Virus record (IMG/VR): IMGVR_UViG_3300025018_003790
From: a virus
Taxonomy: Duplodnaviria; Heunggongvirae; Uroviricota; Caudoviricetes
Reading direction: 5' to 3' (one strand)
DNA: 64,000 nt
The translations under genes and the position numbers were made by a program. The first letter of the stretch is position 1. Each line of letters starts with the position of its first letter. Under the pieces are notes generated by a model. The model did not search any database, was not told the DNA's origin, and worked only from the letters and a program-made list of their open reading frames with translations. Positions 18,511 through 54,029 of the stretch are shown in pieces.

Positions 18511-18768
18511 TCAATTAATAATGATAGCATTATTAATTTCTAGTTTTTCTAGTTTTTCTAGTTTTTCTAGTTTTTCTAGTTTTTCTAGTTTTTCTAGTTT
18601 TTCTTGAAGCGCTGAAACAATATCTTCATGCAATATCTTCGAGCCTCTCCTTAAACACCAATCAATCCTTGCAGCATGGGATGGTTTTAATTCTTCTTCG
18701 GCTAAAACCTCTTCTGAAATATCTTTAACCAAATTATATAATAAATTTGGCAATGAACAGTTTCCCAT
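18511..18768 (-). CDS. small protein with (EKL)n repeat
   Basis: ORF track; contains an in-frame 9-bp tandem repeat encoding EKLEKLEKL... Confidence 0.4.
   Translation of the reverse strand: MGNCSLPNLLYNLVKDISEEVLAEEELKPSHAARIDWCLRRGSKILHEDIVSALQEKLEKLEKLEKLEKLEKLEKLEINNAIIIN
18538..18603. repeat. perfect tandem repeat, 9-bp unit TAGTTTTTC x7
   Basis: Directly visible at 18541-18603; multiple of 3, so copy-number change keeps the frame. Confidence 0.85.
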
Positions 18769-18818: not shown

Positions 18819-19496
18819 TTAGGTCGCATCCTGTGGCTCTGTTGGGGCATCCTGTGCTTGGGTCTCGCCTTCGCTACCTTCGTCTTTTACGAAAATGTCA
18901 AAAGAATCATTTGGGTAGGCAAAGAAATCTTCGTTTTTCCCATAAAAATCATGAAGTTGTCTTTTTGCTAATTCTGAGATATCAAAAAAATCTATTTCTC
19001 TAGGATTGTTTTTGTAGTTTTTTAATTTGATCGCATCACCAAGATTTATGTTATTCAAATAAGCAAAATAAATAACTTTAAGATATTGTTCACAAAGTTC
19101 TTTCCCACTAGTTTTGATTGCATTGGGATGTTTTAAAAAGCCACCTTTGAGTTCGGAAACTCTGACCCATTCATTATCAAATTCTCTTAACGGTTTGACT
19201 CTTTTTATCACAAAATCCCATGTCTCTTTGTAAAAGAAGATACTTCTTAAATCTGGTCTATCGTCAAATTCATGTTTTATCTCATAATCCAAGCCATCAA
19301 TAACTCCATCCTCTAAAACTCCGACTGCAATCATTTCAATTTTGTCAAGCAACCCGAAAGGGTGAGCAAAAGTCAAGGAAAAACAAAAAAAATAATCATC
19401 AACATCTTGTTCTGGTTTATATTTTGGCAAAACCATAACAACTTCTTCACCATTTGAAATTGGGACTTTAGTGAGCGCATCTGCCTCAAAATTCAT
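18819..19496 (-). CDS. hypothetical protein
   Basis: ORF track, 225 aa. Confidence 0.45.
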   Translation of the reverse strand: MNFEADALTKVPISNGEEVVMVLPKYKPEQDVDDYFFCFSLTFAHPFGLLDKIEMIAVGVLEDGVIDGLDYEIKHEFDDRPDLRSIFFYKETWDFVIKRVKPLREFDNEWVRVSELKGGFLKHPNAIKTSGKELCEQYLKVIYFAYLNNINLGDAIKLKNYKNNPREIDFFDISELAKRQLHDFYGKNEDFFAYPNDSFDIFVKDEGSEGETQAQDAPTEPQDAT

Positions 19497-19683
19497 TTGA
19501 TACTCCCCAACTTGACATTACCAAACAAGCTGAAATCAATCTCACAAACGAATTGTAAATTGCAAATTTCTCTCTTTTTTTGATTTTTAAACAAACTTCG
19601 TTGTTTTCAAACAACAATTGATATTTCTGACAAATTTTATTGATAAAATCATGTTTTTCATACGGTTCGTCTTTGATTGAGAT

Positions 19684-21087
19684 ACCGTTCCTTAAAATCT
19701 GCGGAAATCTAAGCATTTGACAATGCTCCAAATATTCGCAAACCTACTGGTTTAAAACCGGCACCGTAAGGTCCGGTAAAGAATCGATTCAAAATATTCC
19801 TCCCTGCATTTGTATCTGCGTTGCCTTTATGACCACAGCCAAGGCACAGGAATATCTCTCCATTCCGATTCTTCTTATCAGCATGACCACATTCAAGGCA
19901 AGTGATACTGGTATTATAACAGGGAACAGAACGGAAGGAAACACGGTTTTCTTCACATCCCATTTGAACCCGATTCAACCAATATCGCCACACCCACGAG
20001 CCGATAACTCGACGCATATTTTTGGAAAGGCGTCGTCTTTCCTTTGTCTTGTGATTCAAGTTTGACAACTTTTCAACAACCACAAGATCAATCTTTTCAT
20101 TAGAAACTATTTGTTTTGCAACCTCATCCATTCGTTGTTTCAATGCCCTTCTGGCTCGCTTTTGTCCTTTAGAGCCATGTTCACAACGAACTATTCTCTG
20201 CACACATTCTTTTATGTCTCTGCCCAACTGCTCACCGTTAGAAAAAGAAGCCAAGGCGTTGATGCCAGAGTCAATTCCGATAGCATTTTTGCCTTCCTTC
20301 TTCTCTCCTGTTTGAATCTCAAAGCAGAACTGGACATCTTTGTCTGTTATGATGTAGCTATTCAATCTCTGTCCCAAATTGTTCCATTTGTTAAAATGCT
20401 TGTGATATCTGATTGGCAAGTCAATGATAGTCTTTTCCCCAATAGAAGACAGATGTAGCCAACCATCGAATTCGTTTGTCTTAGATGGCTGAATATCAGC
20501 GATAGTGCAAGAGACATACATCCGATTGCCCTTATGCTTTGGCTTTTCTGCTGTCAATGCTTCTGCCTTCTGCTTCAACTGATTAGCTTTGTTGGAATAC
20601 TTCGCCTTTTCGGCTTTAGCTAACAATCGCTTCTTATCATTGGCTATTCGCTCTTGCGAGGCTTTAATCATATCTATTGCTTCACGAGCACAGACTTTTC
20701 TAAGTCTCGCTGATAGCCAAGACTCTGGTTTATTGACTATATCCTTTAGCAATTCTGCTTTGGTTGGGCAATCATCCCAGAAAGAATCAATGAACAGATT
20801 GCAAAGTCTACCATATTCAGTCAGCACAGTTTTAAGTTGCTCACGCTTGGTAGCGGTAGCGAATTTCAAAGAACACTGTGTTGACCGAATTATCTTCATT
20901 TTTCTGTCTTCGCCTCTGCTTCTTTAGCTTCCGCTTCTTTCTATTTTCACTACTTCTTTTGCCGTATATTTTGTTGGAAAATGACGCCATTAGAGAAGCC
21001 GGGTTTGCGAATGCTCACATGTTTCCCTTTCGTTTCCCGCAGTTATCCATAGATTTTCGCAGATTTAGTGCCAACTGTTATTAACCC
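19684..21087 (-). mobile_element. IS607-family element, internally deleted copy (tnpB only, with a tnpA 3' remnant)
   Basis: Right end ACCGTTCCTTAAAATCTGCGGAAATCTAAGCATTTGACAATGCTCCAAAT and left end ATCCATAGATTT(T/C)CGCAGATTTAGTGCCAACTGTTAT are shared with the copy at 47616..51623. Sequence 20900-20990 is homologous to the 3' end of tnpA in the other copy. Confidence 0.7.
19709..20899 (-). CDS. tnpB: TnpB (OrfB) RNA-guided endonuclease, IS607/IS605 family
   Basis: RuvC-I IGIDSGIN, RuvC-II VVVEKL, zinc finger CLECGH...CLGCGH, RuvC-III NADTNAGRNI; about 88% identical to the 47641..48831 copy, with the C-terminal half near-identical. Confidence 0.85.
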   Translation of the reverse strand: MKIIRSTQCSLKFATATKREQLKTVLTEYGRLCNLFIDSFWDDCPTKAELLKDIVNKPESWLSARLRKVCAREAIDMIKASQERIANDKKRLLAKAEKAKYSNKANQLKQKAEALTAEKPKHKGNRMYVSCTIADIQPSKTNEFDGWLHLSSIGEKTIIDLPIRYHKHFNKWNNLGQRLNSYIITDKDVQFCFEIQTGEKKEGKNAIGIDSGINALASFSNGEQLGRDIKECVQRIVRCEHGSKGQKRARRALKQRMDEVAKQIVSNEKIDLVVVEKLSNLNHKTKERRRLSKNMRRVIGSWVWRYWLNRVQMGCEENRVSFRSVPCYNTSITCLECGHADKKNRNGEIFLCLGCGHKGNADTNAGRNILNRFFTGPYGAGFKPVGLRIFGALSNA

Positions 21088-21311
21088 ATCAAGATAGCTA
21101 TTGTCCCTTCGTCGGACAGAACAAAATAATCATCTTCAATTGAGAAAATTATTGAGACACCAGAGCCATCTGGGTAAATCAAATCTGTTTCAACCAAAAA
21201 AGAGTTTTCACTATGATCTTGCAAAAAATATTCATTCCTTCCAATTAGATCGTAGACATCATCTAGTATTAAATGACCCATCTCTCTCACTGCCTCCGCT
21301 GCCATTGCCAC
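21081..21311 (-). CDS. hypothetical small protein (likely starts at internal ATG near 21281)
   Basis: ORF track; GGAGGCAGTGAGAGAG SD precedes the second Met; TATAAT lies only 10 nt upstream of the first ATG; the stop codon abuts the IS left end. Confidence 0.35.
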   Translation of the reverse strand: MAMAAEAVREMGHLILDDVYDLIGRNEYFLQDHSENSFLVETDLIYPDGSGVSIIFSIEDDYFVLSDEGTIAILMG

Positions 21312-27568: not shown

Positions 27569-27610
27569 GCTGACATACTCCCTCCGCTAAAGCAGGAAGG
27601 CTTTCTAGCC

Positions 27611-28720
27611 GTGTTCTTTGTAAATTATACCTTGTTGTGTCAACCAAAAATTTATGTTTTGCAGGGAATAAAATTTTTTGTTAGAATTAATACTTTGATC
27701 CTTTGGAGGTTTTTCAAAATGGAATTTAATAAAAAAGTAGATAGGGCTTTGTCTGATTTAACAAAATCTTCACAATGGTGTGATGATCATTTTAATGAAG
27801 GATGGGGAAATCTTGCAAATTGTTTTGATGATACTATTTTGCTTTTATCTGCATTTTCATCTAAAGATAAAAAATTAATTAAATTAAATCAACAAAGAAT
27901 TAAAATGGGAAAAATATCTGGTCTCCCTCAAATATCTCTTGATGCCATCTTGGAGAGTGGGGGTAGGAAAATTCTAGAGAATATTGTCCCCCTCGGCGAG
28001 AGGTTCTTGCAGCATCAAACTGGCGGTGGGGACCACATGAAAGACGAGAGGAAAGAAGTTCCAGGTTGGAGAGACAAAGCAGGAAGAGCTTTAGATTATG
28101 GGACTACATTTTCAAGGAACCCAGGTTTTTTGAATATGGTCGGCGCTGGTCTAGGGGAATATCTAAAAGGTGGTGATTTAAAGGGAGTTGCAGAAAAAGC
28201 TGGATTGGCAAATCTTCCATACGAAGTTAGAATCGGTCTTGAGACATTTGAGGGATTAATTCCATTGGTTGAGGAGGTTGCCCCTGTTCTTAATCAGTTC
28301 ACAAATTATAATGTCTCAGAAATTATTAACAAAATGAAATCTATAATCCCACAAGTAGCTGCTGCTATCGGTTGGGGTTTGTTACTCAGGAAAATCATGG
28401 GGCTTGGTGGGGGAGATCAAATAGACGAAAAGAATAAAGATCATAAAATAATAGATGATTCAGTCCCAGAAGCTCCAAAACCCCAAGAATCGGGAGAACC
28501 AACCAGGGTCATGCCATCAAATTCTTCAGACGGTTTTGCTAATGATGTTTCTGATTTTGGTTTAGGATCAGAAAAACAATTGGGATTGAGAAGAGAATCT
28601 TCAAAAAAATCATCAAATCCATTAGTTTATGTTGCAATAAAAAAGAAAAACTCAAATGGGACCATTAAAAAAGAACTTGGGATTTTGCCATACTCACTTG
28701 CTAAATTGATGAATGATTAA
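27611..28720 (+). CDS. hypothetical protein
   Basis: ORF track, 369 aa; its stop abuts the stop of the convergent gene 28721..29506. Confidence 0.45.
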   Translation: MFFVNYTLLCQPKIYVLQGIKFFVRINTLILWRFFKMEFNKKVDRALSDLTKSSQWCDDHFNEGWGNLANCFDDTILLLSAFSSKDKKLIKLNQQRIKMGKISGLPQISLDAILESGGRKILENIVPLGERFLQHQTGGGDHMKDERKEVPGWRDKAGRALDYGTTFSRNPGFLNMVGAGLGEYLKGGDLKGVAEKAGLANLPYEVRIGLETFEGLIPLVEEVAPVLNQFTNYNVSEIINKMKSIIPQVAAAIGWGLLLRKIMGLGGGDQIDEKNKDHKIIDDSVPEAPKPQESGEPTRVMPSNSSDGFANDVSDFGLGSEKQLGLRRESSKKSSNPLVYVAIKKKNSNGTIKKELGILPYSLAKLMND

Positions 28721-30076: not shown

Positions 30077-32020
30077 TCAGATAGTTTTTAGTCTTTCTAG
30101 TTCATCAAGTTTTAAGAAATAGAACCCGAAAACAGTAGGATACTGCAAGGTTCTTTCTGTGTCAAGATCAATATCTTCCAAATGAGTTCCCTGTGGTTTT
30201 TGAACCCACTTATGAATGTTGCCAAAGAATCTAATAAAAAATTTTTTCACCCAATCAACGATTTGGTTGTGTAAATAATCTTCAAATTTTTCAAAGAGGA
30301 TCAATGCTATTTCATATGGTGATTTCCCATGAGTTACCAATAATTCATAACAAGAGTCTAAAACTTCAAATGGCATTAATTCTCTTTCATCTTCTTGGTT
30401 TTCTGCAAGTTCCGCAGAAGCAACAGTTTTGTAGATCAATCTAGCAAGAACAATCGCAAGTTGTGCGCTCTGTTCGTCGTTTTGATTTGCAAGTGCTTTT
30501 AGATAAAAATACTCCAAAATTTTGTTAATCTTTGTTTTTCGGCAACCAGAGATTGGGGCAAAATCTCCTTGCATATCACCAAGTTTTGTCGCATACCCAA
30601 CGGCTGTTTCCGACATATTGCTTGTGCAGAGCACAAGCCCTCGACAAATATTTGAAAGATTGGCAATTTTTGTTGCACGGATTCTCGCTTGTATATTTTG
30701 ATCTGCAATTCTGTAATCCGCCTCTCCAAAACCAAGCCCTTCATTCAATTTACGCAAATCTACTGATTCTCTTTGAAACGGTTCAGCAATTGATTGTTCG
30801 TAAAAATTAAGACCAAGTGTTTCACATAAATCCTTTGAAATATTTCTGGTAGCATCAGAGTTATAAGATGTTGGGAAAGAGACACAGGTAACAACATCGT
30901 GAGGATTCAAATTATTTCTGATTGCCCATTCATAAGCTAAAATTGCAACCAAGACAGAATCTCGGCCACCAGAAATAGAGATTAACATCCTATCAAAAGT
31001 ACCAACTTTTCTGAAATAATCACCCATTCCCATAATAATTGCATTAATTATTTCTTCGATTTCATCAAAAACTACAACTTTTTCTTGTTTTTTAATTCTT
31101 GATCGATCAATGTTTATTCCCTGTGGAATTTTGACTGTATAAATAGAAGGAATTAACTTTTCTCTTTCAATAAAATCTTCTGCTTGACTTTTCCAGGTTG
31201 TATCTCTTGCCCTTGATGCCCAGACTTCATCAAAATCAACATCTTGGATAACAATTCCTGGTTGGAATCGTTCCAATTCAGCTAAACATTCACCCTCTTG
31301 AATAATATAGCCACCACCATCAAATGAAAGTTCTCCGTTCCCACCAACTTGATATGCTGCTAGAAGAATCGAATGATCATCAATTGATCTTTGTCTCAAC
31401 ATCATTTTTCGATTGTTTTCGACTCCTGATCTAAAAGGCGATGCGTTCAAAATAGCATGAACAACTGCGCCTTCATAACCATGGTGCCTCATTGGCCCAT
31501 CTGGCACCCAAGAGGTTTCACAAATTTCACAAGAAAAAATGAAGGAACCATTAATTTCAAAAAGGAGATCGCCAAAATCTGGATTCTCTAAACCAAAACC
31601 AATTTTTGTTAAATCAAATTGTTTGCCTTCTGTGGTTGTTCTTTTTTCATAAAAAATACCATAGTTCGGAAGATGTTGTTTGGGGGTGATACCGACAACT
31701 TTACCTTTATGAATCACAAAAGCACAATTAAAAATTCCACGACTCGGGATCGGCAGGAATCCACCAATCACAAAAATTGTATCTAGATACATTGTAGCTT
31801 CACAAAATCTATAAATTTCTTCTATTTCTCGGTGAAAGAAAAATGGCAACAAAAGAAAATCGCTACAAGGATAACCTGTTACACAACCTTCTGCATAAAC
31901 CAATAGATTACAACCAAGATCATTTGCATGAGAAGCATAAGGAAGCATTAAATCTACATTGTTCTTAAAATCACCAACTTTAGGATTCATGGAGACAACA
32001 CCGAGACGTGCTTTTGACAT
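30077..32020 (-). CDS. nadE: glutamine-dependent NAD+ synthetase
   Basis: N-terminal CN-hydrolase (nitrilase) domain, C-terminal NAD synthetase domain with PP-loop ISISGGRDSVLVAI (SGGxDS); 647 aa. Confidence 0.8.
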   Translation of the reverse strand: MSKARLGVVSMNPKVGDFKNNVDLMLPYASHANDLGCNLLVYAEGCVTGYPCSDFLLLPFFFHREIEEIYRFCEATMYLDTIFVIGGFLPIPSRGIFNCAFVIHKGKVVGITPKQHLPNYGIFYEKRTTTEGKQFDLTKIGFGLENPDFGDLLFEINGSFIFSCEICETSWVPDGPMRHHGYEGAVVHAILNASPFRSGVENNRKMMLRQRSIDDHSILLAAYQVGGNGELSFDGGGYIIQEGECLAELERFQPGIVIQDVDFDEVWASRARDTTWKSQAEDFIEREKLIPSIYTVKIPQGINIDRSRIKKQEKVVVFDEIEEIINAIIMGMGDYFRKVGTFDRMLISISGGRDSVLVAILAYEWAIRNNLNPHDVVTCVSFPTSYNSDATRNISKDLCETLGLNFYEQSIAEPFQRESVDLRKLNEGLGFGEADYRIADQNIQARIRATKIANLSNICRGLVLCTSNMSETAVGYATKLGDMQGDFAPISGCRKTKINKILEYFYLKALANQNDEQSAQLAIVLARLIYKTVASAELAENQEDERELMPFEVLDSCYELLVTHGKSPYEIALILFEKFEDYLHNQIVDWVKKFFIRFFGNIHKWVQKPQGTHLEDIDLDTERTLQYPTVFGFYFLKLDELERLKTI

Positions 32021-32051: not shown

Positions 32052-32696
32052 TTAGATTAACAATTCATCAAAAAGTTCTGTATCGAGATTAGTTAAGCAA
32101 TTGACTTCAAATTTTGAAAGTTGTTTGCCGTTGATCCACCAACTTTTATTGCCATCAGCTAATTCAATAGCAGGCCCATCAAGGCGGTGAAGCTGGCCAT
32201 TTTGCAACCAAGATTTTGAACCATTGGCAAATTCAATTGCTGGGCCATCAAGGCGATGAAGTTTGCCGTTGAGCCACCATTCTTTTGTTCCGTCAAACCT
32301 TTCAATAGCTGGCCCATCAAGGCGATGAGATTTGCCATTCAATCTCCATTCTTTTGATCCGTCGGCATTTTCAATTGCTGGCCCATCAAGGCGGTGAGGC
32401 TGGCCATTTTGCCACCATTCTTTTGATCCATCGGCAAATTCCTTTGCTGGCCCATCAAGACGATGAGGTTTGCCGTTGATGAACCATTCTTTTACCCCAT
32501 TGGGCCAATCAACAGCAGGCCCATTAAGGCGATGAAGTTTGCCGTTGATGTACCAATGTTCTACTCCCTCGGGTGTTTGATATGCTGGCCCATCTTCTCG
32601 GTGAAGTTGGCCATTTAAAGTCCAAGTTTTTACGCCATTATTCTCGATCCTTAATTTTGGATTTTTTTTCATAGTTAACCTCAATTCATCAATCAA
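32052..32696 (-). CDS. MORN-repeat (variant) protein
   Basis: About eight tandem units of the WxNGKxHRLDGPAxE..DGSKEW form. Confidence 0.7.
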   Translation of the reverse strand: MIDELRLTMKKNPKLRIENNGVKTWTLNGQLHREDGPAYQTPEGVEHWYINGKLHRLNGPAVDWPNGVKEWFINGKPHRLDGPAKEFADGSKEWWQNGQPHRLDGPAIENADGSKEWRLNGKSHRLDGPAIERFDGTKEWWLNGKLHRLDGPAIEFANGSKSWLQNGQLHRLDGPAIELADGNKSWWINGKQLSKFEVNCLTNLDTELFDELLI

Positions 32697-33952
32697 TAAA
32701 TAGTTTCTTCAAAGAATTCGGTTGAATTATCCCAAACACGTTGATACCTTTCGACTTCACTCTTGGGGCCTTGTGCTTTCGCAAGATTGTTGCTAATTTT
32801 AACTGTTGAAACAGGTTCGTTGATCATCAAAGAACTTATCACTTCAACTGCTTTAACAATAATTGACAAAGGATCCGCACCAAGATCATTCGAGCAATTT
32901 GTACCAATCCCGAATTTAACACCAATCCTTCCACTGAAAGCTTCAAATAGTTTTTTAGCAAGTGGGGGATTTAATCCATCACTGAAAAAGATGACTTTTT
33001 TGAGTGGGTCAATACCTTGCGATTGATAGAAAGAAATAACCCTTTTACCGAACTTGAAGGGGTCGCCAGAATCATGCCTAATCCCTTTGTAAAAACCAGA
33101 AAGAAATCCAGCAAAATCAGCAAAAAATGCATCATCACCAAATGTATCCCCCAAAGCTATTGATAATGGTTTCCCATAAAAAAGTTTCCAATTTCTAAGG
33201 ACAAATCTTTGTGATTTCCTCAAAGATTCATCCCCACCAATTGCCCCCATTATTGCAGCTATAACCATATACAATTCGTGGGCTTGAGTCCCGCCTGGAA
33301 TTTGTACGTGTTTCATAGCTAAATTAATATTTGATGTCCCTAAACAAGAAGGACAATTCTCAACAAAATCCTCATAACATTCTTCTTGCCATTCAGGACT
33401 AAAAGCCCGCCTTGTCCCAAATTCTACCCACTCAAAACCAGGAATAGAATTGAATAATTCAATTTTTTCTTTTCTGCGGCGGCGGCCTTCTTTTTTAAGT
33501 TCTTCCATTTGATTTGGATATTTATACCGATAATAAAGAGCATTGATTATTGACATAATAAAGGTCTCTGAATAACTGGATCTAGCCCAATAATCTTGAG
33601 AGTCGATCAAAAATTGTCCATCCCGAATGTCAACATTGATTTTAGGCATTTGATAATTTTTTAAGAATTCAAAATAATCAGAAAAATCTTCTTTCTTATA
33701 CCCAACCCTGAATGAATCAGCAATGAATCCAATTTCGTTTGCAGAAAACCTTAATGATCTGCAATGATCTAATTCTTCTCTAACTGCTTCAATTGGAATA
33801 ACTTCAGCTAATTTATTGTCTTTTTTTCTATTGTTGAAAGCAAATCTAACAATAGGGTCTGGGAATCTTTCTTCAATGAAAGCCTGCATGGCAATTTTAT
33901 ACCAATCTGTATGCAAAAGAGTTTTGATAATTGGTTCTGGGTTTGTTAGCAT
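32693..33952 (-). CDS. pncB: nicotinate phosphoribosyltransferase-like enzyme (NAPRTase/NAMPT superfamily)
   Basis: N-terminal LLHTDWYKIAMQ matches the PncB signature LLDTDAYKLHMQ; real start probably the internal ATG at 33950-33952, preceded by GAGGAGGAAAG SD. Confidence 0.65.
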   Translation of the reverse strand: MLTNPEPIIKTLLHTDWYKIAMQAFIEERFPDPIVRFAFNNRKKDNKLAEVIPIEAVREELDHCRSLRFSANEIGFIADSFRVGYKKEDFSDYFEFLKNYQMPKINVDIRDGQFLIDSQDYWARSSYSETFIMSIINALYYRYKYPNQMEELKKEGRRRRKEKIELFNSIPGFEWVEFGTRRAFSPEWQEECYEDFVENCPSCLGTSNINLAMKHVQIPGGTQAHELYMVIAAIMGAIGGDESLRKSQRFVLRNWKLFYGKPLSIALGDTFGDDAFFADFAGFLSGFYKGIRHDSGDPFKFGKRVISFYQSQGIDPLKKVIFFSDGLNPPLAKKLFEAFSGRIGVKFGIGTNCSNDLGADPLSIIVKAVEVISSLMINEPVSTVKISNNLAKAQGPKSEVERYQRVWDNSTEFFEETIY

Positions 33953-33990
33953 CTCTGCTTTCCTCCTCGCCCTCTTCCCCGTTTGTAGCA

Positions 33991-34025
33991 AAGCCCTGCG
34001 GCGCTGTGAGAGCGCCGCAGGGCTT
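33991..34025 (-). promoter_or_regulatory. 15-bp perfect GC-rich hairpin between the vWA and pncB genes
   Basis: AAGCCCTGCGGCGCT-gtgag-AGCGCCGCAGGGCTT; no U-tract, so not a canonical terminator. Confidence 0.5.
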
Positions 34026-41676: not shown

Positions 41677-43718
41677 CGAAGCTATCGCCTTTCCTTCCCC
41701 AAATTATCTATTTGATTTAATTTTTGCAATTTTTTCTATTTCTTTTAGTCTTTCTTGTGTATCAATATCTTCATCTAACAAAATCGCAGATAAAAGATCA
41801 ATAATTTTTATTTCATTATTCTTAAGTTCTTCAAAATCTAGATTCAATTTAGAGAATTCTTTGGAAAGTTCTGAAAACTTCTTTTCTTTATTTTGTTTAG
41901 ATAGTTCAAACAAATTATCAATTATATAAAACAACACCCCTCCGACAATAATAATAATGATTAGGTCGTTCATTTTTTATCTCCGAAGATTAAGCTTGAA
42001 GAACTTGAAAAAACTAAATCATCCTTAAAAAGAGGATTTTCGGTTTTTTTGAAAGGACAGGGGATCTGATCATAAAATTGATTGATATTTCTTCCGAATA
42101 TTGAATAGCCTTCTTTTTGTTTAATGACTTGAATTCTCTTGGTAGAAAGGCCACGAGTATTCCTTGAATAAGTTGGTGCATTAAGATTAATAATCAAGAT
42201 ATCTTTGTTCTTAGGGCGCCAAATATCATATACAGAAAGCCATCTTAAATCATTTTCTTGCAAATCTTTCACAAGAATTATTTTTGGCTCTTCTTTTTCT
42301 TTATAAACTATCTTTTCTTTTTGGGGTGGAATAACAAATGGTTTTACTGCAAATATAAACAAAGCCATTGATAGGATAAAATAGATCAACTTCGGTCTGT
42401 TTTTCATGGCTGTTCCCTTCCCAAAATGGGCGCATTGCCTACGATAACCGTTTCTTCTCCTGCTTGGACTTCAAATTCTTTTTGGGTTAAATCAAAACAG
42501 CCGCTTGCTAAACCAATTTTTATATCCTTTTGATGAAGTGGACAGGTTAAACAACCAAGTAATTTCAAATATTGAGTTGAGTTTGGGTTGATCACCATCC
42601 CACTTGCCTGCCTTTCAGGATGAGTGCCCGACCAGTCCATACTTAATGCACACTTCGCCCACAATGTTTGATTTTAAAAAGGAGATCAAATCAGAATATT
42701 CTAATTCCATCAATTCAATTTGCCTTTCCCTTTCAGAATCTGAAGGGATTTCAAAAAGCAATCCTTCTTGAAACATTTTCTCTTCATTCCACCAAAAACT
42801 TTCAACCTTAACCTTTGATGAATTAGTCATTAGAACAACACGGTTTGATTCGTTAAAAGTCCCACGATCACAAAGACGATCATAGAAATCTTCCGGGAAA
42901 TTTTTGGTATCATATCCTAATTTAATCAAAGCTGTCGAAACACCATCACCAACAATTTCGATGTATGGCCCCATGTAGTGTCTGATTGAAAATGACATCT
43001 CCAGCCCCTCTGGCAGTCCAGCCGCCACACCTTAGTATACCCCAACGGAGGCCATCCGAGTAAGCTTCGCCGTTGGGGCGCAAAAATATCAAAAAATTGA
43101 TTAGTTATTTAGATTTAATCAAATAGCTAATTGCTTGTTCTATTGTTTCAAAAGTAGCCTCTGTCTCATAAAAAGATGTAACAAGAGCTACACCTTTTTT
43201 ATAAATAAATAAAGTGCTATTTTCATCCAATATTGATACACAAGAAAGACTAAAAGAAAATGAAATTCTTAATACTTTTGCACTAATCATACTATGTTTT
43301 TTGTTGATGCCATGTTCATCACAATCATAATAATCAATTTCAAAGTTTTTTCTAATAAACGGAAGAATACAATTTAATTCTTCCATATATTCTTCTATTG
43401 GAGTATTTCCAAAAACCATTAAATAAAAATCACACTGTTCTTTTTCTTTATTAAAACAATTTTGATAAATATGCTTAAATTTAGCATCCATTGCAGCGGT
43501 ATAAGCTGCAATTTCCCAGATGTTTGAATTTGTTTTATATTTATATGAGAACCAATCTAGAATTTCCTCTCGTGTCAGACTCATAATTCTTTCTAATTCA
43601 TTTTCTTCTGTTGGATCCCTAATTTCAGTTAAAATATCACCTTTTTTTAATTTAAATGTCTCAACTTGTGCTTTTTCAGATGAAAAGAATGTTATATCCA
43701 TAAGTTTTTTCTACTACA

Positions 43719-46658: not shown

Positions 46659-46951
46659 TCACCTTCTTTCGGTTCGGTTGCCGCTTTGATTTCAGCAGGA
46701 GGTTGTTCGGCTTCAACGGTTGGTTTCCAAATTCCAGCGATTTTATTAACACCAATAAGCACAAGGATCAAATCTATACCGAGGACAAGGATCCCATTAA
46801 TTACATATAAATCATTTCTTTTGTTCAAGAGAAAAATTCCAATAATTGCAATAATTGAGACAGCAATTAACCCTAAAATTGAATAGAAAATTGTTTTCGA
46901 AATTTTCATCAGCATCTCGTCACTCATCATCGCTTTCTGTCCTTTCCCCAA
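46655..46951 (-). CDS. small integral membrane protein, SPFH partner
   Basis: Two TM helices; 4-nt overlap with the SPFH gene. Confidence 0.5.
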   Translation of the reverse strand: MGKGQKAMMSDEMLMKISKTIFYSILGLIAVSIIAIIGIFLLNKRNDLYVINGILVLGIDLILVLIGVNKIAGIWKPTVEAEQPPAEIKAATEPKEGE

Positions 46952-47005
46952 ACAAAAAAACGAGAGGCTGAACCAACCAGGGCCATTGGTCGATTCAGCC
47001 TCTCG
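46951..47005 (-). terminator. strong rho-independent terminator
   Basis: CGAGAGGCTGAA-(19 nt loop)-TTCAGCCTCTCG perfect 12-bp stem followed on the minus strand by TTTTTTTGTTTGG. Confidence 0.6.
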
Positions 47006-47289
47006 TATCTTGCTTTTTGGCGCTTGTTAGCACCTTTTCGGCCAACCCAAGCCGGTTCCATAATCCGCAAGAGATCATGGCTCATTGTGCCACCCAGGCC
47101 GAAATGGAGATCACCGATTGCCGGTTTCTTCGAAATGATCATCAACAGCTTTTCAGCCGGATAGGCCCATTTCGACTTCACCAAGAATCTCCCTCACAAA
47201 TCGGCTTACCTTTTTGTGGCACCTTCCACGATACCTCGAACCGGAGAGGCGGATGGTCCTCTCCGGCCCGAGGCACTCTGCGTCAACAC
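46951..47289 (-). ncRNA. candidate structured ncRNA (about 335 nt, GC-rich, promoter-to-terminator unit)
   Basis: Sigma70-type promoter TTGACA-N16-TATACT (47296-47323, minus) upstream, intrinsic terminator downstream; about 55% GC with many perfect stems (e.g. CCGGAGAGG/CCTCTCCGG). The only ORF (TTG start) runs through the terminator hairpin. Confidence 0.35.
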
Positions 47290-47295
47290 ACCTAG

Positions 47296-47323
47296 AGTAT
47301 ATCACCCCAGCGACCAGTGTCAA
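47296..47323 (-). promoter_or_regulatory. sigma70-like promoter TTGACA-N16-TATACT
   Basis: Exact -35 and near-consensus -10 read on the minus strand. Confidence 0.5.
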
Positions 47324-47640
47324 ACTAGGTGGCCTCTGGAAGAAATTCTATCTTTTCTAATAAATCGTTATTGGGAAGCCACTCATCAAACCAATTAAGA
47401 TATTCATCTAATCGTTCTTTTGAAAGATTCAATCTCATACCATGATCACGATCAAGAGAGATTAAGCAACATAACAATTTTTCTAAAAAATCTATGGAAA
47501 TAGACAACCACCATTTTCTACCGAATGAAGAAAAAAGAATCGAGCCGCTGCTGGCCCTATAAAAATAACCACATTGAGTAGGATAATCTTCTCCAATCGG
47601 GACAAAAAGAATCAAACCGTTCCTTAAAATCTGCGGAAAT

Positions 47641-48831
47641 CTAAGCATTTGACAATGCTCCAAATATCCGCAAACTCACTGGTTTGAAACCGGCACCGTA
47701 AGGTCCGGTGAAAAATCGATTCAAAATATTCCTCCCTGCATTTGTATCTGCGTTGCCTTTATGACCACAACCAAGGCACAGGAATATCTCTCCATTCCGA
47801 TTCTTCTTATCAGCATGACCACATTCAGGGCAAGTGATACTGGTATTATAACACGGAACGGTTCGGAAGGAAACACGGTTTTCTTCACACCCCATTTGAA
47901 CCCGGTTCAACCAATATCGCCACACCCACGAGCCAATAACTCGACGCATATTTTTGGAAAGGCGTCGTCTTTCCTTTGTCTTGTGATTCAAATTGCTAAG
48001 CTTCTCCACAACCACAAGATCAATCTTTTCATTAGAAACTATTTGCTTCGCAACCTCATCCATTTGTTGCTTCAATGCCCTTCTGGCTCGCTTTTGTCCT
48101 TTAGAACCATGTTGGCAACGATTGATGCGATTAACGCAACCTTTTATATCTCTGCCCAACTGCTCGCCGTTGGAAAAAGAAGCTAAAGCATTGATACCAG
48201 AATCAATCCCTATGGCATTTTTGCCTTGCTTCTTTTCACCAGTTTCAATTTCAAAGCAAAATTGAACAGAATCTTTTGTTATGATATAGGAATTAAGTCT
48301 TTTTCCCAAGTTGTCCCATTTATTGAAATGCTTATGGAAACGAATTGGCAGGTTCATCACGATCTTATTTCCTATTGAAGCTAGATGAAGCCAAGCATCG
48401 AATTCATTAGTTTTAGACATTTGAAGATCAGCAATAGTGCAACTGACATTCATTCTATTGCCTTTGTGCTTTGGCTTCACGGCTATCAATGACTCTGCTT
48501 TCTGTCTCAATTGGTTCGCCTTTGTTGCGCTTTTAGCTTTTTCTGCTTTGGCAAGAAGCCTCTTCTTTTCGTTGTTGGTTTTTTCTTGGGAAGCCTTGAT
48601 CATGTCAATTGCTTCTCTGGCACAAACCTTTCTAAGTCTAGCTGAAAGCCAAGAATCAGGAGCGTTCACGATGTCTTTTAACAATTCTGCTTTGGTTGGG
48701 CATTGCTCCCAGAAGGAATCGATGAACAGGTTGCAAACTCTTCCGTATTCGGTCAACACAGCACCAAGCTCCAGCCTCTTTGCGGAGGTTGAAAACTTGA
48801 GGCTGCACTGTGCTGACCGAATAATTTTCAT
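47641..48831 (-). CDS. tnpB: TnpB (OrfB) RNA-guided endonuclease
   Basis: Same RuvC-I/II/III and zinc-finger motifs as 19709..20899. Confidence 0.85.
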   Translation of the reverse strand: MKIIRSAQCSLKFSTSAKRLELGAVLTEYGRVCNLFIDSFWEQCPTKAELLKDIVNAPDSWLSARLRKVCAREAIDMIKASQEKTNNEKKRLLAKAEKAKSATKANQLRQKAESLIAVKPKHKGNRMNVSCTIADLQMSKTNEFDAWLHLASIGNKIVMNLPIRFHKHFNKWDNLGKRLNSYIITKDSVQFCFEIETGEKKQGKNAIGIDSGINALASFSNGEQLGRDIKGCVNRINRCQHGSKGQKRARRALKQQMDEVAKQIVSNEKIDLVVVEKLSNLNHKTKERRRLSKNMRRVIGSWVWRYWLNRVQMGCEENRVSFRTVPCYNTSITCPECGHADKKNRNGEIFLCLGCGHKGNADTNAGRNILNRFFTGPYGAGFKPVSLRIFGALSNA

Positions 48832-48832
48832 A

Positions 48833-49120
48833 TCAGTGGACCATCCCTTGCGTATCTATGGTAATTTTCTTTTCTCTCACACTATCTAATATAATAGGAT
48901 ATGGCCTTGATTCAGTAAAAACCTCTTCTCCAATAAGACCGGCTGTATATTCTCCAGATTCCAATGCTAATTGTTTATCATCTTTAACCCACCAATCCAT
49001 TACTTGCTGTTCTTCACCTTCACCAGAAGAAGCAACCTCTGATAATTCGAATTCTATATTCAATTCATAGTCATGTCCATCAATGTTTAGTTTGTGTTCA
49101 GTTTCATATTTAGTTGTCAT
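48833..49120 (-). CDS. small acidic protein (95 aa) inside the IS element
   Basis: ORF track; pI clearly acidic (EFELSEVASSGEGEEQQVMDWW...); 1-nt gap to the tnpB start. Confidence 0.45.
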   Translation of the reverse strand: MTTKYETEHKLNIDGHDYELNIEFELSEVASSGEGEEQQVMDWWVKDDKQLALESGEYTAGLIGEEVFTESRPYPIILDSVREKKITIDTQGMVH

Positions 49121-49132
49121 AATTTTTCTCCT

Positions 49133-50650
49133 TTACAGGTACATAACAGTTTTCTTGAGCTTGCCTAGTTCAATAACATTCTCTATAGGTTCGAACCAAA
49201 AATACTTTCCCTCCCAATCCGGCTGCCTTTGAATAAGTGAATTCCAACTATCAATGTGATTTGAATTTGGGCCGTCACAAAAAGTAAGTCTTTCTTTTCC
49301 AGCGAAGGCGCTTTCTCTCGGATTCCTATCCAATAGGGCCTTTGCCCTATCAATCCCCTTTTCACCAGATACCGTATTCGTAGCAACGCTCTTCTTTATT
49401 ATTTCCTCTGGAATATCCTCATACTTATCAAACACAATCATCTTGTATTGTCTTTTAATTTTGCTTTGAGAATTCCATCTCCCACCAGGGATTATGGTGA
49501 ATTCTCCATCAAAGAATCCGATGATATTATCCACCAATTTAGTGCTTGAGATATAAATCGGGAACACGTCGTCTTGTTTCCTGTGTCCTGATTTACAAGG
49601 AAAGCCTAAATATCTACCGATGGACTGATATAAAGAATCATCGGTTTTATAAGCATCAATATGCATACGAATATGCATAGTCTCATTTAGTGTCTTTCCT
49701 GCTCTCATTGCGCCTTTGATTATAATAATAGAAGGCTTTTTGGGTTGCTCTGATAAAGCACCATCTAACTGACTAATTTCGTAATCTCCATCAATAGAGT
49801 ATTCCCTAAACCAAATATTGGGATAGTTTTGCCCCAAATATCTTTCTATAACGAAGGGGGCTTGCCCCTGTGTCCTAATCACAAGATGACCGTTTCCATT
49901 CTTGTTGCAAAGACCAATGAATTCGTCTAGTCTTTCTTTAAAGAATGGAGTGACACAAGACTTCCTATCATCGGCCACTTTTGTTTCATGAACGACTACA
50001 AATCTCCCATCATTCTTTGCGTCTTCGATTGAATAATAATTATCACTCAATTCCAATTGGATACAAGAAAATGAATTCTCTCTTATTTTTGACTGAAGGA
50101 CAGATGCAAATGGGGTAGCTGACAGAGAAAGAACATAGTTATGACCATTATTCCAATCAGAAATAGGCATACCATATTCTATGCCCAATTTATCAAACAG
50201 CACATTAAGTGGACGACTATTGCCTAGAGCCTGATGGCATTCGTCAAGGAAGATTAGCCTTCTATCTACCGTTAGATCTATTTTATCGGGGATCGCATAT
50301 TCTGCCCCGCTTTTCTTAGTAAAATCTGCGAGATGGAAAACTTTAACCCGACAAGAAGCATTAGGCTCGTAGATACCAGCGTTCTGTAACCTTCGTTGCT
50401 GTTGTATTTTGAGTTCATTATCGGAAATATGAAGGATAAACAATATTTCGTAAGTTAGTCCTTCTTTCTCCCATTCATCTTTCATCATTTTAGCGACAAA
50501 GGTAGCCACTCCAGTTTTCCCCTGTTGGGTTTGAGCAATTAGCAATGGCGGGCCTTCATGCTTGGCAAATTCTTCTATAACCTCTTCTCCTGCTTTAATT
50601 TGTTCATAGTAAATAACTTCATCTCCAATTTTCATTTCAGATAGGCTCAT
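49133..50650 (-). CDS. SF2 helicase-like ATPase (DExH type)
   Basis: Motif I AQTQQGKTGVA, motif II FLDECHQAL, motif III SATP, motif VI-like QSIGRYLG; start overlaps the tnpA stop by 14 nt. Confidence 0.55.
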   Translation of the reverse strand: MSLSEMKIGDEVIYYEQIKAGEEVIEEFAKHEGPPLLIAQTQQGKTGVATFVAKMMKDEWEKEGLTYEILFILHISDNELKIQQQRRLQNAGIYEPNASCRVKVFHLADFTKKSGAEYAIPDKIDLTVDRRLIFLDECHQALGNSRPLNVLFDKLGIEYGMPISDWNNGHNYVLSLSATPFASVLQSKIRENSFSCIQLELSDNYYSIEDAKNDGRFVVVHETKVADDRKSCVTPFFKERLDEFIGLCNKNGNGHLVIRTQGQAPFVIERYLGQNYPNIWFREYSIDGDYEISQLDGALSEQPKKPSIIIIKGAMRAGKTLNETMHIRMHIDAYKTDDSLYQSIGRYLGFPCKSGHRKQDDVFPIYISSTKLVDNIIGFFDGEFTIIPGGRWNSQSKIKRQYKMIVFDKYEDIPEEIIKKSVATNTVSGEKGIDRAKALLDRNPRESAFAGKERLTFCDGPNSNHIDSWNSLIQRQPDWEGKYFWFEPIENVIELGKLKKTVMYL

Positions 50651-51287
50651 TGTTTTCTTCCTTTTCTTTTTCAGCTTTACGCTTTTTCCTATTATCAGCA
50701 GACCGTTTTCCGTAAATTTTATTTGAAAAAGATGCCATCAGCGAAAGAATGTCTTCCACTAACTCTTCTTCATAACTCTTTCCAAGTATTTCTTCAACCC
50801 ATTCAATCTCGACACCGTGGCTTCGGAAGAATTTCACAAGAAACTCAAACATAAATCGGCACAACCGATCACGATGTTCAATGATAACCTTGTCAATCTC
50901 ACCTTCTTCAGCCAGTTTGAGAAGCCGGTTCAATTTTGGGCGATCATCCGACATTCCAGAAGCAACCTCTTCAAAAGTTGCCACGACGAAATATTTTTTA
51001 TCAACACAATATTTTGACAATCTTCCCGATTGTCTCCCTAAGTCGCCTTTTGTTTTTTGTTCTTGCGATGATACTCTAGCATATACCGCTACTCTGATAG
51101 TATCTCTAGTTTTCTCTGCCTCTTCGCCAATAAAAGCCTGAATATCTGATATTTTGTATCGCCTGTGACCACCGGGGGTTTTCATCGGGACAAGAGTTCC
51201 TGACTTGTCCCATTGGCGCAAGGTATCTATATTGACTCCAAGGATTTGTGAGGCTTCTCCTATGCTAACTAACTTCTGTTGCGCCAT
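50637..51287 (-). CDS. tnpA: IS607-type TnpA serine recombinase with N-terminal MerR-like HTH
   Basis: HTH LVSIGEASQILGVNIDTLRQWDKSG; resolvase catalytic block IRVAVYARVSSQEQ...GDLGRQ; 216 aa. Confidence 0.8.
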   Translation of the reverse strand: MAQQKLVSIGEASQILGVNIDTLRQWDKSGTLVPMKTPGGHRRYKISDIQAFIGEEAEKTRDTIRVAVYARVSSQEQKTKGDLGRQSGRLSKYCVDKKYFVVATFEEVASGMSDDRPKLNRLLKLAEEGEIDKVIIEHRDRLCRFMFEFLVKFFRSHGVEIEWVEEILGKSYEEELVEDILSLMASFSNKIYGKRSADNRKKRKAEKEKEENNEPI

Positions 51288-51613
51288 CTATAAGTTCTTT
51301 CTCCTTGAAGGTGTAATACCATTGATCATAGATTCTTTGGAATTCTTCAATCTCAGGAAGTTCATCTTCGGCAAATGGCAACGGATGCGGAAAGACCGAT
51401 CCGTTATCAAGTTCGAATTCAGTTGTTGTAAGTCTAACAACAGTATGCTTTGTAATCATTTTGTCCATACCTTCCTATTCGCAGTTTTCTAACAGATTCC
51501 TGCATATTTTTAAGATTTCCTGAGATTTATTTTGAGGACAGATTTTGCAATGCTCGTTAGAGCATCTTATTTACCCATATATCCATAGATTTCCGCAGAT
51601 TTAGTGCCAACTG

Positions 51614-51877
51614 TTATCTACCCTTTTGGAGCGCAATCAAAGATCCTGCTATTTCTTCATAAACAACACCCAATCTTGTGTTTCCTAAAAGAAACTTTTG
51701 GGATAAAACCATAGCCATATGTTTATCGTCGATATTAAGACCTTTTGCTTTAAGTAATTCTTGGAATTTTACCCTAATTTGATACAAATCATGCCTATTT
51801 TCAGATAAAAACTTCAAAACATCTTTCACCCCCTGGCCCTCTTCCTCTGACATGGCTCTAGACCTTCCTGAAATCAA
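51614..51877 (-). CDS. hypothetical protein (stop codon supplied by the IS left-end sequence)
   Basis: ORF track; TAA at 51614-51616 lies inside the conserved IS terminal block. Confidence 0.4.
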   Translation of the reverse strand: MISGRSRAMSEEEGQGVKDVLKFLSENRHDLYQIRVKFQELLKAKGLNIDDKHMAMVLSQKFLLGNTRLGVVYEEIAGSLIALQKGR

Positions 51878-52288
51878 TTCACAATTGAAATTTCAGAATT
51901 CGAGTACCCAGACCAAAAAGATCTAGATTGAAGAGTTTGAATAGCCCTTGCTGAAAGTAAAGAAATGATCAAGATCAAAATTACCTTTTTCATTTCTTTT
52001 TCTCCGATTCAATCTTTTCTTTCAATGAACCTAATGCCAATGGGATTGTGCCTCTTTTTTCAGAGTTAAAATCTACACCAAAAATAGTATGTTTGAAAGC
52101 TTCAAAACTATCACCATCTTTAGTGATTTCAATTAAATATCCTTCGGATCTTGTTGGTCTGCAAATAAAAGAGTTTCCATCATCTGATGACGAAACATTA
52201 AATTCTTCACCTAAAAACCCCCTGACTAATTCACTGATCTGTTCACATTGTCCCATGTCTTAACTCCTTTTGTGGTTTTTTCGAAACA

Positions 52289-52362
52289 TAGCCAAGGAGA
52301 GACTCGAACTCTCAATAACACGGTTCTTGGCCATGCTCCTCTACCAATTGGGATACTTGGCC
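52289..52362 (-). tRNA. tRNA-like gene, anticodon loop CCAAGAA (nominal anticodon AAG, Leu) with C33; possibly aberrant
   Basis: 74 nt: acceptor GGCCAAG/CTTGGCT (G1-U72), D-arm with GG, anticodon stem CATGG/CCGTG, short variable loop, T-arm GAGAG-TTCGAGT-CTCTC, discriminator A, no encoded CCA. Confidence 0.5.
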
Positions 52363-52370
52363 ATCAGACA

Positions 52371-52889
52371 TTATTCAACTATCCTTAAAAAGTAAATCAC
52401 ATGCATCTCATCAAAATTTTCACTTTTGAAACCAATCACTTCAAAACCATCATCAACAACATTTTGAATTGCTTCTTGTAATGAAAAATCTGAATATCTA
52501 AAAGTCTTTGTTGCAACTTCTTTTTTGATTCCAGCTAATTTTTCGAATTCTTTAACCGTTTTGAAAATTAGACCCATTCGTTTTTTCAAATTTTTAAACA
52601 ATTCTTCAGGGTCTCTTTTCGGTGGATAGGTTTTGATGGGCGGCAATGTTTCACAACAAAGACAAGCAATGTATCCACTCCATTCTTCGTGACTCTCCCA
52701 TTCATCGGAAACAACAATCGCAAAATCTTTCTTTTCTGCGGGTTGAAATTCAACCCTAAATCTTCCAGAACTTTCCAAAAAACTCTCAACAAAATCTTTT
52801 GGCTTAACTACAACCCAAGAATAACCTGGGAAAACTTTGGAAATAGCAGCTAAAAGTTCTTCTATCGCTTTCTCCTTTAGCGACATCAT
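52371..52889 (-). CDS. hypothetical protein
   Basis: ORF track, 172 aa. Confidence 0.45.
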   Translation of the reverse strand: MMSLKEKAIEELLAAISKVFPGYSWVVVKPKDFVESFLESSGRFRVEFQPAEKKDFAIVVSDEWESHEEWSGYIACLCCETLPPIKTYPPKRDPEELFKNLKKRMGLIFKTVKEFEKLAGIKKEVATKTFRYSDFSLQEAIQNVVDDGFEVIGFKSENFDEMHVIYFLRIVE

Positions 52890-53018
52890 TGCGCCTCCTT
52901 TAGATCACTTTTTATTTCATCATTCTCCCGTGAATCTTTAAGTTCCCATTCCATCCCAGGAAATTCTTTTTTGATAGCTTCCATTATTTCTTTTTGTTCA
53001 TCCGTCAAAGTTTGGTTC

Positions 53019-53453: not shown

Positions 53454-53455
53454 TT

Positions 53456-53860: not shown

Positions 53861-53931
53861 AGCCCTGGGGGGAATTGAACCCCTCGTTTTAGCCTTGAAA
53901 GGGCTGCGTTCTACCATTGAACTACAGGGCC
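53860..53931 (-). tRNA. tRNA-Glu(TTC)
   Basis: 72 nt: acceptor GGCCCTG/CAGGGCT (G1-U72), D-arm GTTC-AATGGTA-GAAC, anticodon loop CTTTCAA, T-arm GGGG-TTCAATT-CCCC, discriminator A; coordinates anchored to the ORF track (+/-1). Confidence 0.8.
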
Positions 53932-54029
53932 TAACCGGGGAGCACCTCACCCCACTGTGTAACAGGCGCATCGCCCAACTCATGCATGGGGGAGTTTCCC
54001 CTCGGCCCGATCTGGTGCCTGCCCGTGGC

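Follow-up and report, generated by a model that had tools for sequence, protein, structure and literature searches.

Two probable insertions of an IS607-family transposon with predicted omega-RNA guides in a likely large phage genome

Introduction

A 64,000-nucleotide stretch of viral DNA (Caudoviricetes; IMG/VR record IMGVR_UViG_3300025018_003790), referred to here in its full length as the window, carries two related tnpB genes on its minus strand, and this raises the question of where the elements that contain these genes end and whether the DNA just outside each right end could supply the guide of a TnpB omega-RNA. An earlier note on this DNA had proposed that the two copies are identical up to a sharp point past the tnpB stop codon and that the two different flanks beyond it are two different guides. 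TnpB nucleases of the IS607 family and their right-end guide RNAs have already been characterised, and the core finding is ordinary in kind; what the window adds is a fully delimited pair of elements, together with a predicted target-adjacent motif (TAM), namely RGGGT, an explicit guide for each copy and an RNA covariance model. The evidence presented below makes it very likely that two independent insertions of one IS607-family (serine-recombinase) transposon lie in the window, which is probably a portion of a large phage genome, and this degree of confidence applies jointly to the insertions, their ends, the proposed mechanism of TnpA and omega-RNA, and recombination between the 3′ ends. All element features described here lie on the minus strand.

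Boundaries and anatomy of the two element copies

Self-comparison of the window by blastn returned one alignment in the tnpB region (19684-20899 versus 47616-48831; 82.4% identity over 1220 columns), and global alignment in gene orientation traced homology from the tnpB ATG to ...TAGATTTCCGCAGATTTTAAGGAACGGT, 25 nt past the TAG stop codon. The two copies finish with the same terminal sequence, ...GGAACGGT, are 100% the same over the 52 nt adjoining the right end, and part company between 19684 and 19683 in copy 1 and between 47616 and 47615 in copy 2, beyond which the right flanks are unrelated (ATCTCAATCAAAGACGAACC in copy 1 versus TTGATTCTTTTTGTCCCGAT in copy 2). Both methods reproduced exactly the divergence that had been claimed and the flanks assigned to it (19664-19683 and 47596-47615); a shift of the divergence point under computational alignment had been set beforehand as grounds for abandoning the prediction, and the point did not move.

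Comparison with relatives, comprising 23 genomic and 80 metagenomic loci that encode homologues of the window TnpB, supports the divergence point as the true right end. In approximately 90 loci, (G)AACGGT occurs a few to ~50 nt past the tnpB stop codon and is followed by 80 different flanks without a conserved position, and near-identical elements in different contexts stop exactly at ACGGT (locus pairs L021/L029, L088/L092 with 99.9% identity over 2442 bp, L091/L093 and L077/L082). These near-identical pairs start at (G)GGT, followed after ~4 nt by AACNGTT. The predicted RNA scaffold described below stops at the same point. Because the terminal motif and the abrupt divergence recur in ~90 loci, and the flanking 20-mers are unique in the window, the sharp shared end is not a product of chance.

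The left ends emerged from the self-comparison as a 44-nt repeat (21044-21087 versus 51580-51623; 93% identity) that reads ATAACAGTTGGCACTAAATCTGCG[A/G]AAATCTATGGATA in gene orientation and starts directly after GGGT, where two unrelated open reading frames (ORFs) end. The left end of copy 1 (21040-21083; TAATAACAGTTGGCACTAAATCTGCGAAAATCTATGGATA) contains a subterminal core at 21050-21066, and that of copy 2 (51576-51619) contains one at 51586-51602, with a weaker core copy at 51512-51528. Reverse complementation of this left-end core, AAATCTGCGGAAATCTA, gives exactly the core of the right end, TAGATTTCCGCAGATTT, and the motif occurs five times in the window, always at element ends, versus 0.46 occurrences expected. 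The extreme termini are not inverted repeats and read AACAGTT at the left and AACGGT at the right in direct orientation. Each copy has sharp ends, with left flanks that finish in GGGT and elements that finish in ACGGT.

Copy 1 (19684-21083; 1400 bp) is a complete though non-autonomous IS607-type element consisting of a left end, a 3′ remnant of tnpA, tnpB and a right end, and copy 2 (47616-51619; 4004 bp) is autonomous, with a left end, orfX, tnpA, a helicase-like gene, an ORF of 95 aa, tnpB and a right end. The remnant was detected by tblastn in the copy 1 spacer (20913-20996) as 28 codons of the tnpA C-terminus with 78.6% identity to residues 182-209 of copy 2 TnpA (E 5e-14). Copy 1, which has kept both ends, these 28 tnpA codons and an intact tnpB, is thus an internal-deletion, non-autonomous derivative.

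A conserved RNA structure that ends at the right end

A structured scaffold that lies over the 3′ end of tnpB and terminates at the right end is expected of TnpB omega-RNA systems, and such a scaffold was recovered from an alignment of 71 non-redundant family members over their final 180 nt, in which RNAalifold identified three helices within the last ~170 nt. In copy 1 these correspond to helix A (19853-19849 with 19800-19796), helix B (19845-19841 with 19827-19823) and helix C (19777-19771 with 19762-19757), and the scaffold is completed by a terminal stem-loop (19743-19696) and the 3′ tail UUAAGGAACGGU (19695-19684). Standard pairs were formed in 96.6% of alignment cells versus 35-45% when partners were slid, 12 of 18 pairs were changed on both sides, and compensatory changes occupied 200 cells versus 11-42 with slid partners; none of 500 shuffles matched the observed pairing and covariation. 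In helix C (ACNGG...CCNGT), the synonymous wobble base of a Thr codon covaries with the first base of an Arg, Gly, Cys or Ser codon, a pattern that is beyond what protein constraint can produce. Most members also have a terminal stem-loop before the last 9-19 nt (mean uninterrupted stem of 7.7 bp versus 5.9 bp in shuffled sequences, p = 2e-10), the family mean of the tail minimum free energy (MFE) z-score was -2.0, and single-sequence MFE folds recovered the helices with z-scores of -2.9 for copy 1 and -4.3 for copy 2.

The covariance-model search suggested in the earlier note was run with a model (R1) of 68 relatives from which the window sequences and their closest relative had been left out, and it found matches at both predicted sites. 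These were the only full-length matches in the window and both end at right ends, with the predicted scaffold of copy 1 at 19684-19856 (137.9 bits, E 1.7e-25) and that of copy 2 at 47616-47788 (140.5 bits, E 5.3e-26); the next best match scored 15.6 bits. The two scaffolds differ at seven positions, none of which breaks a pair. Together, these results support a conserved structured RNA, the putative omega-RNA scaffold, that overlaps the tnpB 3′ end and stops exactly at the right end. Solo copies of the guide RNA were found by the covariance model neither in the window nor in 28 related loci, and Rfam searches at E <= 10 in 19400-21200 and at E <= 1 in 46850-47700 returned no guide-RNA family (e.g. 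RAGATH-18, IS605-orfB motifs or HEARO). A pseudoknot between the invariant 3′ GGAACGGU and an upstream GUUCC, considered by eye in the alignment, was discarded, as its variable positions do not covary.

Since the scaffold stops exactly at the right end, the flank that adjoins it is the predicted guide, which differs between the copies: 5′-AUCUCAAUCAAAGACGAACC-3′ for copy 1 (19664-19683), starting at the first nucleotide after the conserved ...ACGGT, and 5′-UUGAUUCUUUUUGUCCCGAU-3′ for copy 2 (47596-47615), starting immediately past its right end. With three mismatches allowed, each occurs once in the window, and no second target was found there. The proposal of two different guides therefore holds for their position, and we infer their use as guides, their length and DNA cleavage by analogy with characterised systems.

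Assignment to the IS607 family and the TnpB nuclease

Copy 2 encodes a TnpA of 216 aa (50637-51287) with a MerR-type helix-turn-helix (HTH) and a resolvase domain, an IS607-family serine recombinase that scores 191.5 bits against the NCBIfam equivalog NF033518 transpos_IS607 (cutoff 110) and, in Pfam, 91.9 bits against Resolvase (PF00239) and 45.9 bits against MerR (PF00376). In this element tnpB lies downstream of tnpA, and the linkage recurs in relatives: TnpA homologues were identified by tblastn directly upstream of tnpB in dozens of the surveyed loci, usually with an orfX homologue further upstream. The hosts of these relatives are archaeal and bacterial metagenome-assembled genomes, including Altiarchaeales, Thermoplasmata, Promethearchaeota, Saccharofermentanales and Vampirococcus. 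An IS200/IS605 element would be recognised by a Y1 HUH TnpA and an AT-rich target or TAM; no Y1 HUH transposase was found in or near either copy or in the relatives, and the target is G-rich. On the basis of TnpA identity and of tnpA-tnpB linkage in relatives, the element is of the IS607 type (serine recombinase, GG-type crossover, G-rich TAM) and not of the IS200/IS605 type, and a generic IS200/IS605-type picture of TnpB is at odds with the serine recombinase in copy 2 and the G-rich target.

Upstream of tnpA lies orfX (51265-51468; 67 aa), which has no match in Pfam, NCBIfam or PADLOC. Homologues of orfX (~60-67 aa; tblastn) are kept directly upstream of tnpA, often overlapping its start, in most of the related loci L015-L117, and orfX appears to belong to the core of the subfamily as a third gene.

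The closest TnpB relatives (73-83% identity; L003-L012, L038, L039 and L080) encode, in place of tnpA, a MerR-type HTH-only protein of 130-146 aa whose gene overlaps the start of tnpB and whose sequence matches the TnpA N-terminus at 41% identity. The right end of L039 precedes the tnpB stop codon, and in the closest relative, P0003, the terminal core is mutated to GGAACGAT. The MerR-like gene upstream of tnpB in P0003 was dropped as a candidate tnpA, being HTH-only without a resolvase domain and thus no proof of IS607 membership by itself; a paralogous HTH similar to this protein maps to the tnpA N-terminus in the window (51096-51278). Several insertion contexts for P0003, suspected from differing gene calls, were rejected, as 10 of 10 contigs share one flank.

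The tnpB genes of copy 1 (19709-20899) and copy 2 (47641-48831) each encode 396 aa and have 87% protein identity. Both exceed the PF07282 cutoff of 26.3 bits (44.8 bits for copy 1 and 47.1 bits for copy 2), and Pfam assigns both to the Cas12f1-like/TnpB family. The RuvC residues D210, E276 and D362 and the zinc-finger residues C334, C337, C352 and C355 are present in columns that are invariant in a 32-sequence alignment; with the RuvC residues intact, neither protein is of the nuclease-dead TldR type. Similarity to the curated IS607_TnpB model was very low (23 bits versus a cutoff of 350), and weak matches were obtained to the OrfB_IS605 and IS200_TnpB models. The NCBIfam Cas12f2 model scored 62-64 bits, and the best sequence matches in the PDB were Cas12j-SF05 and Cas12f-like proteins, which were weak (E ~1e-8) and restricted to the C-terminal ~130 residues; no ISDra2 TnpB chain was among the PDB matches.

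Target sites and interrupted genes

The four nucleotides that abut the left ends, GGGT at 21084-21087 in copy 1 and at 51620-51623 in copy 2, are predicted to form the TAM and target-site core. The family consensus of the left flank over 33 distinct sites is RGGGT: upstream of GGT, position -1 is G in 31 of 33, position -2 is a purine in 29 and position -3 is A in 20. Insertion thus appears to occur beside a G-rich motif, and RGGGT, as the predicted TAM, is close to the published GGG/TGGG of IS607 TnpBs. Both copies and the family carry GG at both junctions (...GGGT before the element and ...ACGGT before the right flank), and with a core that is common to both junctions, duplication of these bases is indistinguishable from a crossover core. 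Given GGT at both junctions, a site without the element would consist of (R)GGGT and, after it, the sequence that matches the guide. Published IS607 biology agrees with these features: ISXfa1 has a GG crossover core, a TnpB TAM of GGG and a fixed right-flanking nucleotide in its scaffold (PMC10711439), and TnpA and TnpB of CboIStron both read TGGG, with a right end of TCGG by which the occupied site is protected (bioRxiv 10.1101/2023.11.20.567912). The last scaffold nucleotides belong to the target site as well, as has been published for IS607 TnpBs. In the related locus L082, at ~1235-1260, an element copy directly follows a right-end-like sequence (...GGTAGATTTCAAGGAAC and then GGT...), which hints that the terminal GGT of an older remnant was the insertion site; a second scaffold match upstream of this element was not found.

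Both insertions probably split genes, as the flanking ORFs rejoin in frame at both copies. The ORFs 19486-19731 and 47325-47663 have their first 16 codons in common, inside the right end, where they encode MEHCQMLRFPQILRNG, a read-through of the right end; the remaining 66 codons in copy 1 and 96 codons in copy 2 continue in frame the ORFs that are cut at the left ends. When the flanks are joined after GGGT, each pair yields a single open frame (141 codons in copy 1, 174 in copy 2), and the rejoined frame of copy 1 ends overlapping the start of the next gene. The left-flank ORFs have no stop codon of their own, and the TAA and AGA-TAA with which they close come from the first bases of the element. 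The ORF tails are accordingly annotated as probable 3′ halves of the split genes, at 19486-19683 for copy 1 (5′ half at 21084-21311) and at 47325-47615 for copy 2 (5′ half at 51620-51853). Both ORFs had previously been dismissed as translation artefacts of the RNA region, a description that fits their first 16 codons but probably not the rest. The only match by HMMER to the copy 2 3′ fragment other than itself was P0123, a protein of 943 aa with eight identical repeats, which looks like a spurious translation of tandem DNA and was rejected as an uninformative homologue.

Near-identity of the tnpB 3′ halves

The description of the tnpB 3′ halves as near-identical and the 5′ halves as diverged agrees with segment identities between the copies of 96.0% (19684-19856), 93.4% (19857-20100), 91% (20101-20190) and 68-81% (5′ 600 nt), and with third-codon-position identities that climb from 0.36-0.61 to 0.82-0.97 and are high over ~400 nt. 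This conservation had been attributed either to the RNA scaffold or to gene conversion. The near-identical zone spans ~500 nt and runs ~330 nt past the covarying scaffold of ~170 nt, which covers at most the last ~150 nt of the tnpB ORF, and related scaffolds vary freely at paired positions. As identity outruns the scaffold and paired positions are free to vary in relatives, the near-identity of the 3′ ~500 nt most likely reflects recombination or gene conversion between the copies rather than RNA constraint.

Exchange of the same segment is visible across the family, where many pairs have only the module from tnpB to the right end in common, with homology from the exact tnpB ATG. For example, over 1140 nt L089 and L098 are 100% identical, with unrelated sequence upstream, and further cases are L042/L055 and L083/L109/L114; copy 1, copy 2 and P0003 show a like pattern among themselves. 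Some of the module joins in metagenomic loci could be assembly chimeras at repeats.

Proposed mechanism and alternative explanations

By analogy with ISXfa1 and CboIStron, TnpA would excise and integrate the element as a double-stranded DNA circle, with crossover in the GG(T) core, giving a predicted circle junction of ...GGAACGGT-TAATAACAG... and a predicted donor joint of ...GATGGGTATCTCAATC.... The occurrence of near-identical whole elements in different flanks among the relatives lends indirect support to such excision and re-integration. The tnpB transcript would be processed to an omega-RNA whose scaffold ends ...GGAACGGU and whose guide is the next ~16-20 nt, and TnpB with this RNA would cut DNA in which the guide sequence comes directly after 5′-(R)GGGT, that is, either the vacant site left by excision or an uninserted site in a co-infecting genome. 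Repair after cleavage would copy the element back, and the occupied site would be spared because its right end reads CGGT and not GGGT. The predicted contiguous flanks of the empty sites are ...GGGT followed by ATCTCAATC... and ...GGGT followed by TTGATTCTT..., with the spanning sequences TCTTGATGGGTATCTCAATCAAAG and CCAAAAGGGTTTGATTCTTTTTG.

Several observations weigh against this interpretation, or against parts of it. Members of the IS607 family are expected to carry subterminal TnpA-binding repeats, and published descriptions give them no terminal inverted repeats (PMC13565253); in the window elements, a 17-nt subterminal core is inverted at both ends, with degenerate extra copies in the left end. 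Nothing in the characterised IS607 elements considered corresponds to the T that is conserved after GG, such that the register could be GGG plus T or GGGT, and copy 1 carries T rather than a purine at position -2. Both TnpBs score 74-82 bits against the NCBIfam guided_TnpB model, under its cutoff of 100, and at gathering score Rfam recognised no family in the window other than tRNA; the omega-RNA is a prediction, as are its 5′ end and the length of the guide. No homologues of the rejoined flank proteins were found, the matches being the chimeric ORFs of the phage itself, and an empty-site allele was not found, with IMG/VR scans using TnpB and two flanking proteins giving no relatives. Finally, that the window belongs to a large phage genome is likely rather than certain.

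The alternatives have difficulties of their own. Elements of the IS200/IS605 type would move as single strands by a Y1 HUH TnpA, with a guide after a right-end hairpin and an AT-rich TAM, and both the weak TnpB matches to OrfB_IS605 and IS200_TnpB and the position of the guide relative to the right end, which would be the same, could be accommodated in this way. However, the missing Y1 transposase, the IS607 serine recombinase in copy 2 and beside tnpB homologues, and the G-rich left flanks (RGGGT) with GGT at both junctions make this explanation extremely improbable. It is also conceivable that the flanking 20-mers are not guides, either because the RNA is not made or processed, because the register is off by 1-3 nt via the shared GGT, or because the right end consists of TnpA sites only. 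The right-end sequences are inverted at the left end and so serve as recombinase sites, and published IS607 work reports register uncertainty (bioRxiv 10.1101/2023.11.20.567912); yet TnpA binding cannot account for covariation inside coding sequence as far as 170 nt from the end, the flank varies from +1 onwards in 80 contexts, and the nuclease residues are intact, leaving this reading very unlikely.

A further alternative is that TnpB and its omega-RNA have been kept as a free-standing homing or exclusion nuclease that cuts co-infecting relatives with uninterrupted targets, with TnpA idle and double-strand break repair copying the module from tnpB to the right end and thereby producing the 3′ identity. 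Copy 1 lacks tnpA, the closest relatives have an HTH-only TnpA fragment and one of them a mutated core, many family pairs share only the module that starts at the tnpB ATG, and TnpB homing has been published for IS605 and IS607 (bioRxiv 10.1101/2023.11.20.567912; PMC13565253), all of which would fit. On the other hand, copy 2 tnpA is intact and above its curated cutoff, both copies keep matching ends, and competitor genomes with the target site were not found. We consider a purely homing role unlikely, and it overlaps the preferred explanation of two IS607-family insertions instead of excluding it.

Comparison with known RNA-guided and homing systems

Interpreted as IS607-type, the window elements are most readily compared with the IS607 TnpB systems ISXfa1 (Yoon et al. 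2023, PMC10711439) and CboIStron (Zedaveinyte et al., bioRxiv 10.1101/2023.11.20.567912), with which they agree in several respects: TnpA is a serine recombinase with an N-terminal MerR-type HTH, tnpB occupies the right end and its 3′ end is overlapped by a scaffold of ~150-170 nt, a GG core marks each junction, target and TAM are G-rich, and the guide, predicted in the window elements, begins beyond this core. In CboIStron the right end differs from the TAM by C for G (TCGG versus TGGG), as it does in the window elements (CGGT versus GGGT). The window elements differ from both systems in the T after GG, orfX, the variable slot genes and the 17-nt subterminal inverted repeat, and have no group I intron. 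ISDra2 TnpB, of the IS200/IS605 group, is similar in being a compact RuvC/zinc-ribbon nuclease of ~400 aa with an omega-RNA from the tnpB 3′ end and right end and with the flank as guide (predicted here), its role being to cut the vacant donor site; in contrast, its Y1 HUH transposase, single-strand peel-and-paste movement and AT-rich TAM (TTGAT) do not apply to the window elements.

Cas12f, Cas12j and other miniature type V effectors have the C-terminal RuvC and zinc-ribbon module (~130 residues) in common with the window TnpBs, but the window system has no CRISPR array, and its guide would be fixed by the insertion site and not acquired. Free-standing homing endonucleases of the T4 Seg/Mob type present an inferred functional likeness, as phage-borne nucleases that could cut relatives and spread by repair with their neighbours (PMC13565253), and the window elements differ from these by a predicted RNA guide and TAM, their own recombinase and defined ends.

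A variable cargo slot between tnpA and tnpB

In copy 2, the region between tnpA and tnpB holds a ResIII/helicase-like gene (49133-50650; 505 aa; PF04851, E 1.6e-6), which has no match in PADLOC, a collection of defence systems, or in PHROG, and an ORF of 95 aa (48833-49120) with no family match. Across the family (loci L015-L117), tnpA and tnpB lie 10 to 2867 nt apart and different members carry unrelated ORFs between them: a 768-aa ResIII/DEAD helicase next to a 147-aa ORF, a type II DNA methyltransferase accompanied by a 211-aa ORF, a GNAT acetyltransferase, or one or more of numerous orphans. Units recur whole, cargo included, in different flanks. Kinship of the copy 2 helicase-like gene with the helicase cargo of L056 and L103 was considered and rejected, as there is no significant similarity.

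No published description of such a slot in IS607 elements was found in the open-access literature. These elements may, as a possible but still doubtful reading, represent an undescribed IS607 branch, a small cargo-carrying transposon with a fixed backbone (left end, orfX, tnpA ... tnpB with its omega-RNA, right end), an open slot between tnpA and tnpB, a module from tnpB to the right end that is swapped at the ATG, and cargo that is spread by homing in phages.

Genomic context

The window shows minus-strand gene packing and encodes NAD-salvage genes and an HNH endonuclease with PHROG matches. The best TnpB match in the phage collection was to a 462-kb uncultured phage (26% identity), and the contigs listed for the protein cluster of copy 2 reach 131.9 kb. 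On the minus strand at 52288-61036, five tRNA genes (Leu-AAG, Glu-UUC, Thr-UGU, Ser-UGA and Arg-UCU) are scattered between small ORFs.

Beyond the right end of copy 2, a stretch of ~55% GC without a called gene (46950-47325, minus strand) stands out from surroundings of 30-39% GC. A near-consensus promoter (TTGACA-16-TG-TATACT) lies at 47323-47296, a terminator formed by a 20-bp hairpin and U-run follows at 47006-46960, and the 391-nt fold of the region has an MFE of -180 kcal/mol (z = -8.7). The region has no match in Rfam, in tRNA/tmRNA searches or in phage databases and is a candidate for a new structured RNA of ~330 nt.

Several repeats were also identified. A 9-nt unit, TTTCTAGTT, is repeated perfectly in tandem 7.6 times at 18537-18604, inside ORF 18511-18768, and two assemblies of this phage carry different numbers of the unit, with an ORF of 73 aa in one and 85 aa in the other. 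Approximately six diverged 69-nt tandem repeats (72-81% identity) at 32123-32616, between ORFs 30077-32020 and 32693-33991, are probably within a repeat-containing protein. A 54-nt repeat (27570-27623 versus 61831-61884; 96% identity) and a 36-nt inverted pair (41733-41768 versus 43230-43265; 94% identity) are unrelated to the TnpB elements.

Implications

A 396-aa nuclease with a predicted G-rich TAM is directly testable. The family context, with its third gene, variable slot and mosaic modules, may outweigh the guides themselves in interest. With one element of this family in what is probably a large phage, cargo could pass from one co-infecting genome to another through RNA-guided homing, and if the cargo-transposon reading is true, an RNA-guided nuclease in phages would drive cargo genes into co-infecting genomes by homing.

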